This document shows, in pieces, positions 42,474 through 52,028 of a DNA stretch of 64,000 nucleotides. The notes beneath the pieces are model-generated. The model saw only the letters and a list, made by a program, of their open reading frames with translations. It had not been told where the DNA came from and did not search any database. The stretch is from NCBI RefSeq assembly GCF_904830925.1, contig NZ_LR882967.1, positions 3,362,106 to 3,426,105 on the forward strand, in the 5' to 3' direction. The DNA comes from Planktothrix pseudagardhii (lineage in GTDB: Bacteria > Cyanobacteriota > Cyanobacteriia > Cyanobacteriales > Microcoleaceae). How positions within the stretch are numbered: the first letter of the stretch is position 1; the number at the start of each line of letters is the position of its first letter. The translations under genes and the position numbers were made by a program.

Positions 42474-43586
42474 TTAACGGTGAAATCGTTTTGCTAAACT
42501 TATAAAGCCCAAATAACCTAATTGATTCAACAGTTTCAGCCATTCTCCCAAGGACGCTGATTTTTTATAGTAGATACGAATGAGATGGATAGCAGCATCT
42601 CCAATTATTTTCATGGAATTTAAGCGTTTTCCTTCTGGATATTTTTCTTTTGAAATGACTTGAATAAATTCACGCGATACATCACGATTTAATTTACCAA
42701 GTCTATATTCAAAAATATCACTCTCTGTTCCCTTTCTACTGGTTAAAATCAAGGTACTTTGCCCTAATAAACTCCGTAGTTCGTTAGCTAATTCTTTAGG
42801 ACTTTCTGTGTCTTCTAAACCATCAATAACTATTAGAGTTTGCGTGTTATTTAATATCTTACTGATTTCAATTTTACACTTTTCAATATCTTGTAATACG
42901 AAATGAGGTAATTTGAGTTCACTCCCAATGTCTTTAATAGCATCTTTTAAGGTTAAACGAGAATCTCGTGAGCTAGAATTAGTTTGATTTTGTTCCGGAT
43001 AATATTGATATACTTTTGCTCTGACCCAAGCAATTTTTGAGAATAATTTAGCATGATAAGCTTGGGATACTAATTGATGACAAAGGGCAGTTTTTCCTAA
43101 ACCACCGATACCCAGTATTCCAATTATCCCTAAAACTTTATTTTTTTGTTCAGATTCTAGGTATTTTAAGAGTTCTTCTATTTCAGGATTTCGTCCTACA
43201 AATTGACCATAAGTTTTTTCTTTTTGCCAAGTTTCTTCACTATACTCTTTAGGAGTACCACCAAAAGTATTGGTTTGTTGATAGCCTTTACAATTTCGTT
43301 CAATAGCTGCTTTAAAATTCCTTTTAGTTACTTTTTCTCCTAATGCTTCTGAAAGTTTATCCCAAAATTTATTTCCTACATCTTTTTGAAGATAGTTTTG
43401 ACTATAAGCATGGCTCTCAGCTATTGTATTGTAAGTTTTTTTCTGCCAAGATTCTCTAAAAATAATTGTCTCAATATCACTAAGTTTCTCTCCAAATTTT
43501 TCATAAAAACATCTGTTGGCTACTTCCAAAGCTTCATCTTCACTTAAGTTGCTGAATTGCTCTGTCATAAGATTAAACACCCTCAC
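42474..43586 (-). CDS. STAND-type P-loop NTPase (NB-ARC-like), truncated after the NTPase module
   Basis: Walker A GILGIGGLGKTAL. Walker B region LIVIDGLED. A ~130-aa N-terminal domain precedes the NTPase. No C-terminal repeat array. The gene is very AT-rich. Confidence 0.6.
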   Translation of the reverse strand: MRVFNLMTEQFSNLSEDEALEVANRCFYEKFGEKLSDIETIIFRESWQKKTYNTIAESHAYSQNYLQKDVGNKFWDKLSEALGEKVTKRNFKAAIERNCKGYQQTNTFGGTPKEYSEETWQKEKTYGQFVGRNPEIEELLKYLESEQKNKVLGIIGILGIGGLGKTALCHQLVSQAYHAKLFSKIAWVRAKVYQYYPEQNQTNSSSRDSRLTLKDAIKDIGSELKLPHFVLQDIEKCKIEISKILNNTQTLIVIDGLEDTESPKELANELRSLLGQSTLILTSRKGTESDIFEYRLGKLNRDVSREFIQVISKEKYPEGKRLNSMKIIGDAAIHLIRIYYKKSASLGEWLKLLNQLGYLGFISLAKRFHR

Positions 43587-43615
43587 CTGACTTTACCTGA
43601 CTTTACCTGACTTCT
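43586..43615. repeat. 10-mer tandem repeat (ACCTGACTTT)x3 immediately upstream of the STAND gene start
   Basis: cacctgactttacctgactttacctgactt. Confidence 0.85.
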
Positions 43616-43854
43616 CATTATATCAGATGTTAAAGTCCTGATTTTAACTAGATTTTTGCTGTATCGACCATTTTGACTCGCTACGAGAACATTGATTTAT
43701 AGGTTTAAGGGTTCAGTTTTAGTTCATTTTATTTCGCCAAGTAGATTGAACAAACTGAGCCTTCAAACCATTCATTATCAAGCATTCTGGAAATATACGA
43801 GTAAGCACAGTTGGCCAACGAGCTTCTCATCCCATTATTGAGAGGTAATCTGTG

Positions 43855-44028
43855 ATGAAACGTCTTTCTTTAACCCAAATTTTACTGATTGTGAGTTTAA
43901 TGGTTCATACTGTAAGATTCATGGGTGATATTTTGCCTTATAATCAACCTGCTTTTGCTTCTCCAGATCCTTTTGAAGTTAAGGTTAATCATAATTGTCC
44001 AGATGGTAATACAGGAGGAACAAAGTAG
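43855..44028 (+). CDS. Candidate small secreted peptide (57 aa) not in the ORF track
   Basis: ATG at 43855 preceded by GAGAGG. Predicted signal peptide MKRLSLTQILLIVSLMVHTV, then RFMGDILPYNQPAFASPDPFEVKVNHNCPDGNTGGTK. Sits on the + strand between two minus-strand genes. Confidence 0.3.
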   Translation: MKRLSLTQILLIVSLMVHTVRFMGDILPYNQPAFASPDPFEVKVNHNCPDGNTGGTK

Positions 44029-44089
44029 TTTGTAATTCTAACTAGATTTGCCTAGATTATAGGCAGTCTAGTTTGGTTTTATAAAATCA

Positions 44090-50147: not shown

Positions 50148-50152
50148 CCTTG

Positions 50153-51487
50153 ATGACTCAACTCTTAAATCAAGCTTTATATCAAAACTCTATTGATTTA
50201 ATTTTAGAACAATTAAATCTTGATTCTGCCTTTTTTAAAACTCTACCCCGTTTTCAACGGATGAATTATAAAGCTACGGTTAGGTTTTTGAGTGACTATA
50301 AAACTCATTCAGATGAACAATCTTCACAAAAAGTCAACAATAGCTTAGAAGCTTTACATCACCTGTGTACAATTCCCGAATGGGTACTAACCGATTCTAC
50401 TATAATCACTATTTTTGAACTTCCTATTGCTATTAATCCTTCTACGACTAATCTATTAATCCCTTTATCTGAATATCTATCTTTCAAAGGTTCTTATCAA
50501 ACTTTACTGGGGGTCACTCAAGAAATTATAGATTCATTAAAAACCAGTAGCAAAATTTTGAATGATATTTTACTTTTAAAAGCCATAGCGTTAAGTAGTT
50601 TAAATCAAAATCCGATACAGGTTTTTCAAATTCTTCAAGAAATTTCTGCTACATCCCATCCTCAATCCTTACAACATATAAAAGCAAATTGCCATTTAGC
50701 AATGTATCAAGTTTCCTTGGGAAATTATCAAGATGGAATCAGGAACTTGCAAAAATGGTTAGTGATTATTGATGAAAATTTGAAGCATCAAAATCTAGCT
50801 CAATCAGATTTTCAGCTTGATGATATTAAAACGGGAATGCTTGAGATTTTGGCTTATTATGAAATGAATGCTAGTCATTTTGATCAAGCTTTAGAAATTT
50901 ATGAGCAAGTTATTAGCCTCAGAAAAGAACGGGGATTAATTCATCGAATAATTACTCCACAAGTGCATCAAGGCATTATTTTACGGAGAAAAGGACAGTA
51001 TGACCAAGGAATTAAAATTTTGCAAAATGCTCAAGAAAAAGCGCAACAAATTAACGATATTCAAGCTCAAGTGTTTATTGCTCATCATTTAGGTTATATC
51101 TATCTTAACCAAAGAAATTTGACAGAAGCAAAAAAATTAGCAACAATAGCCTTTGAAGGGTATAAAAAATTAGATGATTTCCGAGGAATTTCTGATTGTT
51201 ATGAACAATTAGGTCTGATTAATCTAGCAGAAAATGATGGTGAAACGGCTATCCAAAATTTTAAAATAGCACTAGAAATTAGACAAACCATTTTTAACTT
51301 GCATGGAACAGCTAGTTGTTTATTGGATTTAGCTTTAGCTTATTGGTATCAAAAACAAATTCTGAAATCCTTTTTCTTCTTAATTAAAGGCTTTCAATCC
51401 TATGCTCAAGTTGGAATTTTAAATGGCGTTAGATTCAGGCGAATGCTAAAAATAGCTTATACTTGGATTCTGGGTAGACCAAACTAA
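50153..51487 (+). CDS. TPR-repeat protein (likely sensor arm paired with the preceding NB-ARC protein)
   Basis: ATG at 50153 (ORF track begins at a TTG at 50150). Multiple TPR-like units (ALEIYEQVISL..., AKKLATIAFEGYKKL..., AIQNFKIALEIRQ...). Confidence 0.6.
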   Translation: MTQLLNQALYQNSIDLILEQLNLDSAFFKTLPRFQRMNYKATVRFLSDYKTHSDEQSSQKVNNSLEALHHLCTIPEWVLTDSTIITIFELPIAINPSTTNLLIPLSEYLSFKGSYQTLLGVTQEIIDSLKTSSKILNDILLLKAIALSSLNQNPIQVFQILQEISATSHPQSLQHIKANCHLAMYQVSLGNYQDGIRNLQKWLVIIDENLKHQNLAQSDFQLDDIKTGMLEILAYYEMNASHFDQALEIYEQVISLRKERGLIHRIITPQVHQGIILRRKGQYDQGIKILQNAQEKAQQINDIQAQVFIAHHLGYIYLNQRNLTEAKKLATIAFEGYKKLDDFRGISDCYEQLGLINLAENDGETAIQNFKIALEIRQTIFNLHGTASCLLDLALAYWYQKQILKSFFFLIKGFQSYAQVGILNGVRFRRMLKIAYTWILGRPN

Positions 51488-51506
51488 AAAATCTAAGGAA
51501 ATCAAT

Positions 51507-52028
51507 ATGAAAATAGGAATTGTTTGTGGCTATGGTAATATTGTAGATGATAACTTAAAAAATTATATTGATTTGGTAATTTTTTATATTACGGAGGATA
51601 AGATAGATAAATTAATTCTTAGTGGGGGATGTAGTTTTACAGGATCAAATATTTCTGAAGCTCAATTAATGAAAGAATTAATCAGAACTAAAATATTAGA
51701 TATAGATATATGTTTAGAAGAAGAATCTTTAACAACTTTACACAATTTATTATATTCAAAGCGATTTTTAGATAATCTGGAATATTATCAAATTCAAGCT
51801 ATTTATATATACTGTGATCAAGTTCGTTATTTTAAAATAAATTGTTTAGCTAAAATCATTTTTAGAGATGATCCAGTCAAAATAATTAAATTACAAAGAA
51901 AAGAAAAACCCTTGATTTATTTAGCACAAATTCCCTCTCTATTTATTCAATGCTTAGCAGCAATTTTTCCTAATATTGAAAAACACATTTTAATCAACAA
52001 GAAAAAATGGATTCAAAAATATAGATAG
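51507..52028 (+). CDS. DUF218 (YdcF/ElyC/SanA-like) family protein
   Basis: IGIVCGYG...KLILSGGCSFTGSNISEAQLMKELI...EEESLTTLHNLLYS follows the DUF218 pattern (G-rich start, SGG, SEA, NT/ENxxxS). The gene is extremely AT-rich compared with its neighbours. Confidence 0.5.
   Translation: MKIGIVCGYGNIVDDNLKNYIDLVIFYITEDKIDKLILSGGCSFTGSNISEAQLMKELIRTKILDIDICLEEESLTTLHNLLYSKRFLDNLEYYQIQAIYIYCDQVRYFKINCLAKIIFRDDPVKIIKLQRKEKPLIYLAQIPSLFIQCLAAIFPNIEKHILINKKKWIQKYR

Follow-up and report, generated by a model that had tools for sequence, protein, structure and literature searches.

Plants, animals and bacteria share STAND/NLR proteins as the engine of innate immunity. To our knowledge, the characterised bacterial members are single polypeptides whose activity directly causes death or arrest of the cell. 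Avs proteins, each one chain that includes a nuclease, protease or similar effector, recognise the terminase, portal or capsid of phages. A helix-turn-helix (HTH) domain in the effector position of conflict systems has been read as a transcriptional response (PMC8195603; PMC7159879), and repeated changes between defence and regulation have been noted within STAND clades (bioRxiv 10.64898/2026.01.04.697583). Proteins combining Sigma-r4, NB-ARC and TPR_MalT domains are catalogued as sigma-like factors in cyanobacteria (PMC11119718). This report concerns a gene island of Planktothrix pseudagardhii (contig NZ_LR882967.1) that lies within an analysed stretch of 64 kb, called the window here; unlabelled coordinates are positions in it. 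With about even confidence, the segment is read as a mobile island in which two NB-ARC cassettes surround swappable cargo and work as split, NLR-like switches with transcriptional output, their NTPases being STANDs of the conflict type and not housekeeping regulators.

42432-52160, no strand: accessory island, 9.73 kb, 32.4% GC, between a phytase-like lipoprotein gene and cpcT

The island genes are named A to G, with orf57 for a small open reading frame (ORF); A is written A* where the window's altered copy is meant. On the minus strand the order is C, B (overlapping C by 23 nt), orf57 (on the opposite strand), A and the tetratricopeptide repeat (TPR) partner of A. On the plus strand the order is cargo, E, F and G. 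The sequences compared were LR882970.1 (L001, a ~99.5% identical chromosome), Planktothrix sp. FACHB-1365 (L002), Planktothrix sp. PCC 11201 (L006), the 79.6-kb JGI metagenome contig Ga0654610_0000085 (L086/L088), Anabaena sp. UHCC 0253 (L005) and P. agardhii (L090). Two outward-transcribed cassettes bracketing a central slot were found in four genomes, with differing cargo. The slot holds a CHAP-RTX gene in the window and in L001, and an M23-RTX gene in FACHB-1365. In PCC 11201 it holds 8.4 kb (L006 2064-9926) encoding a 597-aa unknown protein, a 1308-aa TM-S1-FtsK/HerA-like ATPase (TM, transmembrane), a 178-aa unknown protein and a 272-aa GIY-YIG protein. On the JGI contig it holds ~14 kb with an EcKL/APH-type kinase, HopA1, two rotamases, small ORFs, a PIN-DUF433 pair, HlyD and a C39-ABC exporter. 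The cargo genes adjoining C run divergently from it, towards E, in each of the four genomes. The contig is well removed from the window in sequence: identity to the window proteins is 57% for C, 69% for B, 75% for A, 66% for the TPR partner of A and 79% for E. A CHAP-RTX protein had been counted among the parts of the system by the first-pass annotation, which was made from the window sequence without database searches. It is better described as swappable cargo, its place being taken elsewhere by M23-RTX, by the FtsK-like/GIY-YIG set or by a set for bacteriocin export, toxin-antitoxin (TA) function and HopA1.

The plus-strand cassette consists of the following genes.

48744-50147, plus strand: E, XRE/Cro-C1-type HTH (residues 1-70, predicted), NB-ARC NTPase (nucleotide-binding domain, helical domain with GHPLAL, helical insert) and winged helix (Pfam, model)
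50153-51487, plus strand: F, separate TPR sensor of E, with a ~120-aa N-terminal docking region followed by a TPR array (docking hidden Markov model, HMM; Pfam TPR_12)
51507-52028, plus strand: G, DUF218 protein (SanA/YdcF/ElyC-type), third gene of E-F-G (Pfam)

E scores 30.7 bits against Pfam NB-ARC (cut-off 23.5) and is also above the nSTAND3 cut-off. The model of the full-length protein (pLDDT 69, pTM 0.48) has an HTH bundle, a nucleotide-binding domain, a helical domain, a long helical insert of low confidence and a winged helix. Its top Foldseek matches were NRC2, the NB-ARC of NRC1, Apaf-1 and CED-4 (E 7e-07 to 1e-04). A separate model of residues 1-92 (pLDDT 76) matched MBF1, ClgR, HipB, SinR, C.BclI and CapH with a Foldseek probability of 1.00 and a root-mean-square deviation of 1.6-2.6 Å over ~60 residues; Pfam HTH_3 stays below its cut-off on E (E 0.011). 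Sequence comparison of the E family and of G with the PDB gave P-loop noise only, and no solved relative of G. Since an HTH domain and not a toxin would stand at the N-terminus of E, the output would be DNA binding and transcription.

F starts 5 nt past the stop codon of E and matches the docking-domain HMM at 1.3e-29. In about 70 of 84 E-family loci a same-strand partner gene (350-1167 aa) abuts or overlaps the NTPase gene, at distances of -46 to +24 nt. These partners are ~20-25% identical to F, and where the NTPases are 80-90% identical the partners share about half of their residues. They have in common an N-terminal consensus, ...QYRAVINWLT.YKP...NLEKVKGYLEAFYHLCEVEDWERA..., after which variable TPR arrays follow. 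The HMM of the docking region found 125 ORFs, 115 of them in E-family loci; 107 of the 115 lie downstream of the NTPase gene on the same strand, and in 109 the region is within the first 60 residues. Two to five tandem docking-domain sensor genes are present in 22 E-family loci, and a plasmid of Nostoc NIES-3756 has five such genes after a PNP-NTPase. In fused relatives (P0110; L046, 1292 aa) the docking region directly follows the winged-helix domain. Both E (467 aa) and the intact form of A (464 aa) end past the winged helix, and the TPR stands in the next gene. The shared docking region, its constant position and the fused versions thus mark F as the detached sensor arm of E. F had earlier been listed as a stand-alone TPR protein. 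Its TPR_12 match bears out the repeats, but F is the separately encoded sensor of E and not an independent protein; a generic stand-alone TPR protein was rejected on account of the docking domain. Equally rejected was a frameshifted pseudogene of a fused NB-ARC-TPR protein, because the split occurs in ~70 of the 84 loci, the lengths are conserved and the genes are under purifying selection.

The E family is large. More than 1000 homologues of ~465 aa with 55-60% identity, the typical value between orders, occur in filamentous cyanobacteria; identities to E in the cyanobacterial family span 45-62%, and the GHPLAL motif is invariant. A scan of one genome per species gave 292 confirmed stretches, of which the best 80 were all from cyanobacteria or mis-binned metagenome-assembled genomes. 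At 55-60% NTPase identity the output domain is exchanged for PNP_UDP_1, for PNP_UDP_1 plus TIR/SEFIR, for SEFIR/TIR alone (SEFIR/TIR relatives: L053, L054, L042, L051, L059) or for PNP_UDP_1 with a C-terminal EAD8. The N-terminus of a Tolypothrix relative matches the PADLOC bSEFIR model at 2e-56. Among the proteins of the window itself, Pfam gave no SEFIR or TIR domain. The family is present on 21 cyanobacterial plasmids. In Anabaena sp. UHCC 0253 (L005 10001-15483, 15788-17014) an E homologue that is 80% identical stands with two docking-domain TPR genes next to an ISL3 transposase, which suggests recent transfer between bloom-forming genera. The family was not found in viral contigs and D gave no match to GenBank phages, so no phage origin is indicated. 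These relatives with TIR, SEFIR or PNP_UDP domains, the fast-evolving sensors and the plasmid copies agree with the kinship to NTPase-centred conflict systems that had been proposed at first. The neighbours of E-family genes include CyanoTRADDas_TM, Uma2, Cas1 and a BrxC-like gene. As a side observation, 11 of 74 E-family loci have a gene of ~105 aa (DnaA_N-like_STI) on the opposite strand, ~200 bp upstream of the NTPase gene (L003 9459-9770, L012, L014, L017, L020, L024, L055, L063, L067 and others); the window island lacks it.

G was correctly recognised as a DUF218 gene (35.0 bits, cut-off 27.6; partial coverage, 27-86 of 133). Its conserved C-terminal hydrophobic helix (residues 136-154, LIYLAQIPSLFIQCLAAIF, mean hydropathy 1.9) suggests that G is membrane-anchored through this helix. 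The anchor of SanA/ElyC is N-terminal, unlike that of G. Loci of SEFIR type in Tolypothrix and Calothrix (L053, L054) have an F-like sensor (39% identity) and a G-like DUF218 gene (48%), and the JGI contig (L088) keeps E-F-G. As G is retained with the F-type sensor in spite of a SEFIR/TIR output, it travels with the type of sensor and not with the type of output.

The segment is a discrete AT-rich accessory island, and is called so because P. agardhii has no insert at the site, homology breaks off there and the flanking genes are of core type. The uninterrupted site of P. agardhii has 70 bp between the phytase-like gene and cpcT; homology to the window ends at 42418 and restarts at 52158. The flanks comprise CemA, a hybrid histidine kinase, RtcB, BFA1, cpcT and sqdB. 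The GC content of 42432-52160 is 0.324 versus 0.396 in the remainder of the window, and no other 9.7-kb stretch of the window is as low. In a profile of 1-kb steps it is 0.28-0.33 at 42-47 kb and 0.27-0.32 at 50-52 kb, and near background at 47-50 kb. By gene, B and C have 0.295 and G 0.236; D (0.404) and E (0.373) are both near background. The first-pass annotation had described about 9.5 kb of AT-rich DNA, probably acquired horizontally. The computed profile bears this out, as do the presence/absence comparison at the lipoprotein-cpcT site and the absence of the island from P. agardhii. Every ORF that it listed was recovered at its coordinates, and the segment is discrete as described, but its true boundaries are 42432 and 52160, not 42474 and 52028. 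No target-site duplications or att-like repeats were seen at the ends of the island, and a scan of it with Rfam gave nothing real. FACHB-1365 has a complete island without deletions at the same site. Protein E is identical to one annotated in Planktothrix tepida, and C to one annotated in P. pseudagardhii.

The minus-strand cassette, termed cassette 1, consists of the following genes.

45624-47396, minus strand: C, 590 aa, HTH-like N-terminus with a ~75-aa insert, NB-ARC/nSTAND1 NTPase, winged helix and 140-aa tail (Pfam)
44090-45646, minus strand: B, receptor-type Ser/Thr kinase with cytoplasmic kinase domain, one TM helix (303-325) and C-terminal TPR (Pfam, hydropathy)
43855-44028, plus strand: orf57, predicted precursor of a small secreted peptide (translation; conserved in L002 and L086)
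42474-43586, minus strand: A*, remnant with sigma-r4-like HTH (HTH_VMAP-M9) and NB-ARC NTPase; probable start ATG 43568

Three NB-ARC NTPases had been announced for the island. All three are above the Pfam cut-off, with 38.2 bits for A and 29.4 bits for C (C is also above that of nSTAND1), and Walker A and B motifs can be read in A, C and E; the Walker A strings reported earlier (GIGGLGKT, SGIGKTS and TGIGKTA) are present in the translations. However, A (42474-43586) is not an intact gene. In A*, residues 1-311 of a 464-aa HTH-NB-ARC protein run on in frame into the final 53 aa of the 452-aa TPR partner of that protein; the helical domain, the winged helix and the sensor are missing. This chimera arose by a 1637-bp deletion relative to L001 (L001 2906-4542) with its junction at ~42635/42636. 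The intact pair of 464 aa and 452 aa is present in L001, L002 and L086, and HTH_VMAP-M9 is recorded on the orthologues of A. L001 has a deletion of its own, of 661 bp (window 45481-46141; L001 7398/7399), which removes the N-lobe of the kinase and fuses residues 1-~418 of C to residues 57-518 of B. Microhomology at both junctions is at most 2 bp. The reciprocal in-frame fusions in two strains of ~99.5% identity could reflect chance (~1 in 9) or selection against truncated products. Among island and flanking genes, only C (24 substitutions in 418 codons) and F (15) differ by substitutions between the window and L001. These two clusters suggest short recombination imports into an NTPase gene and a sensor gene.

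C has no fused repeat sensor. Its NTPase family contains 4697 representative clusters, many of 430-600 aa and some of ~1200 aa with WD40. The N-termini of distant relatives are XRE HTH, HTH_VMAP-M9 or BTAD. A Pfam census of the top 72 representatives gave NB-ARC and WD40 only among the matches listed, N-terminal domains being crowded out of the top 25. In a metagenome scan with the C-family alignment, the patterns chosen gave no relatives.

B had been described as a Ser/Thr kinase with TM and TPR regions, and this stands. Pfam identifies Pkinase (118.9 bits, 3.3e-34) and TPR, and there is one hydrophobic helix at 303-325. The kinase is apparently active, judged from its motifs (GxGxxG, VLK, HRDIKPEN, DFG and PPE), all of which are present. 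The 23-nt overlap indicates that C and B form an operon, and the C-B order recurs in FACHB-1365 and on the JGI contig (B 69% identical in L086). The TPR of B was considered as a sensor of C by analogy with F, and rejected; it lies beyond the TM helix, and B starts with its kinase domain. Against PADLOC, B matches PD-T4-6 at 2.4e-79 over kinase residues 7-280 of 518 only, with the TM and TPR part unmatched; the matches to MAD6 and PglW are likewise to the kinase domain only. The PD-T4-6 match is treated as probable generic kinase similarity.

The translation of orf57, MKRLSLTQILLIVSLMVHTVRFMGDILPYNQPAFA|SPDPFEVKVNHNCPDGNTGGTK, has a signal-peptide-like N-terminus ending in AFA|S. Predicted cleavage would give a mature part of ~22 aa with one Cys. 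The gene has a terminator-like hairpin of its own at 44048-44066; in the window, L002 and L086 alike it stands between B and A with a conserved sequence. Its signal-like N-terminus and its conservation in two other genomes uphold the 57-aa secreted-peptide ORF noted before.

The cargo gene of the window is as follows.

47586-48596, plus strand: D, CHAP head (47586-48011), RTX nonapeptide repeats and C-terminal region (Pfam)

A CHAP peptidase fused to RTX repeats had been recognised from the letters, and Pfam confirms both parts (CHAP 57.5 bits; RTX repeats 65.3 bits, HemolysinCabind 4.6e-18; repeat families D1 and D2). D has no N-terminal signal peptide, and a terminator hairpin follows it at 48609-48642. 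In FACHB-1365 the head is Peptidase_M23 in place of CHAP, and DNA homology restarts exactly at the RTX part (window 48012), which identifies a swap of the catalytic head. No type I secretion system (T1SS) exporter or immunity gene is present in the window island. A general link between E and hydrolases was considered and rejected, since a census of 74-76 E-family loci gave no dominant defence or hydrolase neighbour. The cargo of PCC 11201 may be an uncharacterised defence or mobile module; its 1308-aa protein has weak PADLOC matches to mad8, SspH and HerA. On the JGI contig (L086 1-9803 and 17036-21779, L088 7502-9819), ORFs of 36-87 aa adjoin the C39-peptidase ABC exporter and HlyD in a bacteriocin-like arrangement, and beside cassette 1 are DUF4007, a 1148-aa BrxC/PglY_N-like protein and ParE.

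The candidate control elements are as follows.

43586-43643, minus strand: candidate operator at the promoter of A, three tandem decamers AAGTCAGGT(A/T) (Tandem Repeats Finder, conservation)
43782-43819, no strand: conserved element upstream of orf57, ATATTTCCAGAATGC plus the perfect palindrome GTTGGCCAAC, (nearly) invariant in the window, L002 and L086
47397-47585, no strand: divergent C/cargo control region, candidate operator (conservation)

The decamers at 43586-43613 are placed just downstream of a TATAAT box (43617-43622), with a fourth copy ~25 nt upstream at 43635-43643; Tandem Repeats Finder gave period 10, 2.9 copies and 100% match. The layout is conserved in L002 and also in L086, the proteins of which are only 57-75% identical, although synonymous sites in the genes are saturated at that distance. 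The C/cargo region contains CTGATCT twice with 10-nt spacing (47419-47435), AAGATC (47445-47450) and TTGACAAT (47412-47419). L002 shares its C-proximal ~107 bp, and so does PCC 11201 despite the different cargo there; the counterpart on the JGI contig is GATCT-N4-AGATC. Spacing by helical turns would suit HTH arrays presented by an oligomer. A metagenome scan for three copies of the decamer was a dead end as a route to more cassettes, with three matches and no island genes. Longer arrays of AAGTCAGGT(T/A) stand at L094 9290-9350, L095 963-991 and L096 ~3290-3400, and L095 mimics the layout of a single copy, a spacer and a triple copy.

Between species, the ratio of nonsynonymous to synonymous substitution rates (dN/dS) is 0.07-0.53 for every island gene. 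It is 0.46-0.53 for C (the highest in the island), 0.34-0.41 for F, 0.18-0.23 for E, 0.42 for orf57, 0.24-0.29 for G and 0.07 for the RTX tail of D; in the flanks it is 0.10 for cpcT and 0.03 for sqdB. The genes are thus being kept by selection, C and the sensor under looser constraint.

A working mechanism can be proposed. F would dock on the winged-helix end of E and hold E off. Binding of a ligand to the TPR array of F would lead to nucleotide exchange and oligomerisation of E, as in Apaf-1 and in plant and bacterial NLRs, and oligomerisation would cluster the N-terminal domains. With HTH domains as in E, the cluster would bind DNA cooperatively and set off a transcriptional response; in the relatives, nucleotide-degrading effectors of TIR/SEFIR or PNP type would be clustered instead. 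Cassette 1 would be a second switch of the same logic, formed by A and its TPR partner (broken here) and by C co-transcribed with B. With its TPR ectodomain B would perceive a signal from outside the cytoplasm, which might be the orf57 peptide encoded next to it, and B might modulate C by phosphorylation, as AfsK does for AfsR. The HTH targets would be the decamer array at the promoter of A and the GATCT repeats of the C/cargo region, and the cargo operon, here a predicted T1SS-type CHAP-RTX cell-wall hydrolase, would be among the regulated genes. The trigger would be an invader or a non-self cue. A defence role of the island is plausible from this sequence comparison.

Several findings weigh against this proposal. 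No known-defence HMM in PADLOC supports immunity for the island NTPases. Genes of the E family are syntenic across many Microcoleus and Okeania species and 55-60% conserved across orders, steadier than typical defence genes, and their immediate neighbours are mostly not defence genes (census of 74-76 loci). Outside Planktothrix, no link of the E family to peptidoglycan hydrolases appears, and the case for cargo regulation comes only from gene order and the conservation of promoter regions. Three unrelated metagenome contigs without island genes also contain the decamer, there as a simple tandem repeat. The HTH link of the C N-terminus is weak (E 0.0013 in hhalign against the HTH of E, with a probability of only 18.5%), and the full-length model of E is only moderate by its pLDDT and pTM. 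Finally, A is truncated here and C-B is fused in the sister strain, so the whole gene set is not required.

A wider proposal is offered tentatively, as possible and clearly short of even confidence. The E family would be a bacterial NLR of one NTPase and many sensors, with a swappable output and one to five fast-evolving TPR sensors joined through a shared docking domain; in Planktothrix, two HTH versions, a kinase and a secreted peptide would make a transcriptionally wired immune or kin-recognition switch that controls cargo. If this is true, a cyanobacterial family of ~300 loci shows a detachable sensor that can be multiplied or exchanged without touching the NTPase, a route to broad recognition that recalls the sensor/helper NLR networks of plants, and NLR-type output can be transcription instead of death. 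The island offers a testable case in a bloom-forming cyanobacterium, with promoters that carry candidate repeat operators, a kinase, a peptide and a lytic cargo. A link of NLR-like sensing to regulated release of a cell-wall hydrolase would bear on phage resistance, strain competition and bloom collapse. If these proteins are plain regulators, the locus is a warning against reading every cyanobacterial NB-ARC/TPR cluster as defence.

That last possibility is the main rival, by analogy of architecture and especially for cassette 1, and is thought rather unlikely. The NTPases would be ordinary STAND regulators of AfsK/AfsR or MalT type, unrelated to conflict, which tune cell-wall remodelling, secondary metabolism or other physiology from metabolite or envelope signals. 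All three carry (predicted) DNA-binding domains and none carries a toxic one, and none has a PADLOC STAND match. The operon of C includes an apparently active Ser/Thr kinase, and a small ORF is near, which parallels AfsK-AfsR-AfsS in architecture only, with weak NCBIfam AfsR/AfsK matches; distant relatives of C include BTAD plus NB-ARC proteins (P0166, P0167). The syntenic, well conserved E family of Microcoleus and Okeania, in neighbourhoods that are not rich in defence genes, and the sigma-like factors mentioned at the outset would also fit. However, the same NTPase at 55-60% identity carries TIR/SEFIR or PNP effectors, the sensors are hypervariable and multiplied in arrays, and the distribution is accessory, plasmid-borne and island-like, with strains differing by presence, absence and deletion. 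The DNA-binding domain, moreover, is not of SARP/BTAD or LuxR type. Pfam gave no Trans_reg_C or BTAD match, and NCBIfam AfsR scores were 15-22 bits versus a cut-off of 1430, with AfsK far below its own. AfsR-like signal transduction had been named by the first-pass annotation as the alternative that would remove the defence reading; the AfsR model is not matched, but the kinase/HTH-NB-ARC architecture of C-B does resemble AfsK/AfsR, in cassette 1.

The second rival, considered improbable, is a peptide-based circuit of kin or competitor recognition. The orf57 peptide would be sensed by the TPR ectodomain of B or by the TPR partners, and the STANDs would switch on secreted antibacterial cargo (RTX-tagged CHAP or M23 hydrolases, or bacteriocins with their exporter). 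The kinase-TM-TPR topology of B suits such a circuit, and so does orf57, which is kept in position and sequence across 57-75% protein divergence and has a signal-like N-terminus. Secretion-related cargo is present in three of the four genomes (CHAP-RTX, M23-RTX, and the C39-ABC exporter with HlyD and small ORFs), catalytic heads are swapped on a constant RTX tail as in polymorphic toxins, and the cargo operons diverge from C in four of four. But the cargo of PCC 11201, with its FtsK/HerA-like ATPase and GIY-YIG nuclease, is not secretion-related, the window island has neither T1SS nor immunity gene, and elsewhere the E-F-G family occurs without a peptide gene or hydrolase. No precedent was found for peptide sensing by the TPR ectodomain of such kinases.

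Decaying, hitch-hiking DNA without present function in this strain is quite improbable. The AT-rich composition and the reciprocal deletions in the two ~99.5% identical strains (A with its TPR partner here, the C-B fusion in L001) could be taken as decay. Against this, dN/dS is 0.07-0.53 between species in all genes, the reading frames are intact, both deletions are in frame, and cassettes and promoter elements are conserved as far as a genome with 57-80% protein identity.

Least probable of all is classical Avs-like abortive infection, in which the STANDs would sense phage proteins and CHAP-RTX would be a dedicated lytic effector: the STAND plus TPR architecture, the AT-rich accessory island, the TIR/SEFIR relatives and the strong PD-T4-6 match of B point that way, but that match covers the generic kinase domain only (residues 7-280), no Avs model is matched, the NTPases have no enzymatic effector domains, the E family is not in viral contigs or in defence-rich contexts, and D is replaceable, is absent beside the same cassettes in PCC 11201 and on the JGI contig, has its own terminator and has no signal peptide for periplasmic access (a route other than T1SS lacking).

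Some observations concern the wider neighbourhood. Directly after sqdB are a 142-aa protein without assignment (54065-54493) and a 158-aa DUF6575 protein (54498-54974); both are kept in P. agardhii and thus do not belong to the island. A 656-aa ORF without Pfam match follows at 55091-57061, with a 24-nt unit repeated 28.6 times in tandem at 55724-56410 (8-aa repeat, 85% match). Its version in FACHB-1365 has 592 aa, and it is absent from the syntenic locus of P. agardhii, where a KGK-domain gene comes after DUF6575. P. agardhii has a gene for a fused 1121-aa NB-ARC-TPR protein with PIN and DUF4926 genes (L090 3787-7152 and 2305-3736); in the window this place, upstream of a 441-aa TPR gene, is taken by RtcB and a GNAT-like gene. 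The wider neighbourhood, too, is thus a place where the STAND and TA genes of the genus vary. At 33838-35172 the window encodes a 444-aa protein with a C-terminal FGE-sulfatase domain and an unassigned ~190-aa N-terminal region. FGE/FGS domains are sensors in some conflict systems.

With the reading as two split, NLR-like switches around a cargo slot in hand, the locus can be compared with the described systems. It had been noted at first that the mix of genes fits no named system; PADLOC and NCBIfam, run on all island proteins, gave no STAND-defence or equivalog assignment, which agrees. The suggested affinity to Avs-type systems fell away: no Avs or other STAND-defence model of PADLOC matches A, C or E (the best match was PDC-S01, a candidate family, at 2.4e-06 for C), and the N-termini are HTH and not enzymatic effectors. 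These HTH domains are of XRE/Cro-C1 type in E according to the model and HTH_VMAP-M9 in the orthologues of A. The likeness to Avs/AVAST lies in a three-part plan (output, STAND NTPase, TPR-like sensor) and in ligand-driven oligomerisation, and Avs3 was only rank 33 in the fold search; here a predicted HTH provides the output, a gene of its own encodes the sensor, and the nearest clade for the NTPase is NB-ARC (Apaf-1/NRC). With the vWA-MoxR (VMAP) systems only the domain name HTH_VMAP-M9 is in common, as the island ORFs contain no MoxR ATPase or vWA domain.

AfsK-AfsR-AfsS and regulators of MalT/GutR type share a DNA-binding domain joined to an NB-ARC-type NTPase and TPR, a Ser/Thr kinase alongside, a small adjoining ORF and direct-repeat operators (candidates here). 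The island differs in its HTH, which appears to be XRE-type or sigma-r4-like and not SARP/BTAD or LuxR, in TPR acting in trans and in a TM kinase with a TPR ectodomain. RNPP and arbitrium systems likewise have an HTH, TPR and a neighbouring ~57-aa precursor with signal peptide, and the modelled N-terminal fold of E matches HTH domains of the arbitrium system and of SinR/ComR type. They differ in that an NB-ARC NTPase stands between HTH and TPR here, that the host is Gram-negative and that peptide processing and sensing are only hypothetical. For D, the nearest described proteins are RTX (T1SS) exoproteins with peptidoglycan-hydrolase heads and bacteriolysins like lysostaphin and zoocin, which it resembles in its CHAP head (M23 in the sister species), its Ca-binding nonapeptides and the absence of an N-terminal signal peptide; unlike the exoproteins, the island has no T1SS or immunity gene, and secretion of D is only predicted.

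Another likeness is to bSEFIR/TIR-STAND proteins. The Tolypothrix/Calothrix relatives of E (59% NTPase identity) have an N-terminus matching bSEFIR, an F-like sensor and a DUF218 gene; the E of the window has a predicted HTH instead, and the PADLOC bSEFIR model matched over the N-terminal domain of the relatives only. In the literature searched, no description was found of detachable sensor arrays or of a cargo slot bracketed by cassettes. The closest comparison is with the NTPase-centred conflict systems (Kaur, Burroughs, Iyer & Aravind 2020/2021). Unlike these, the sensor here is routinely a separate gene with a docking region, often in arrays of 2-5; the island places two HTH-output cassettes, a receptor kinase and a secreted-peptide gene around a cargo slot; and the window island has no vWA/MoxR, EAD, Death-like or TRADD-N parts. 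Like them, it has an NB-ARC/nSTAND core, TPR sensors, N-termini that are swapped among TIR, PNPase and occasionally HTH, and an enrichment in filamentous cyanobacteria. The island is not a member of any named defence system, and is of the conflict-type STAND kind by family resemblance.

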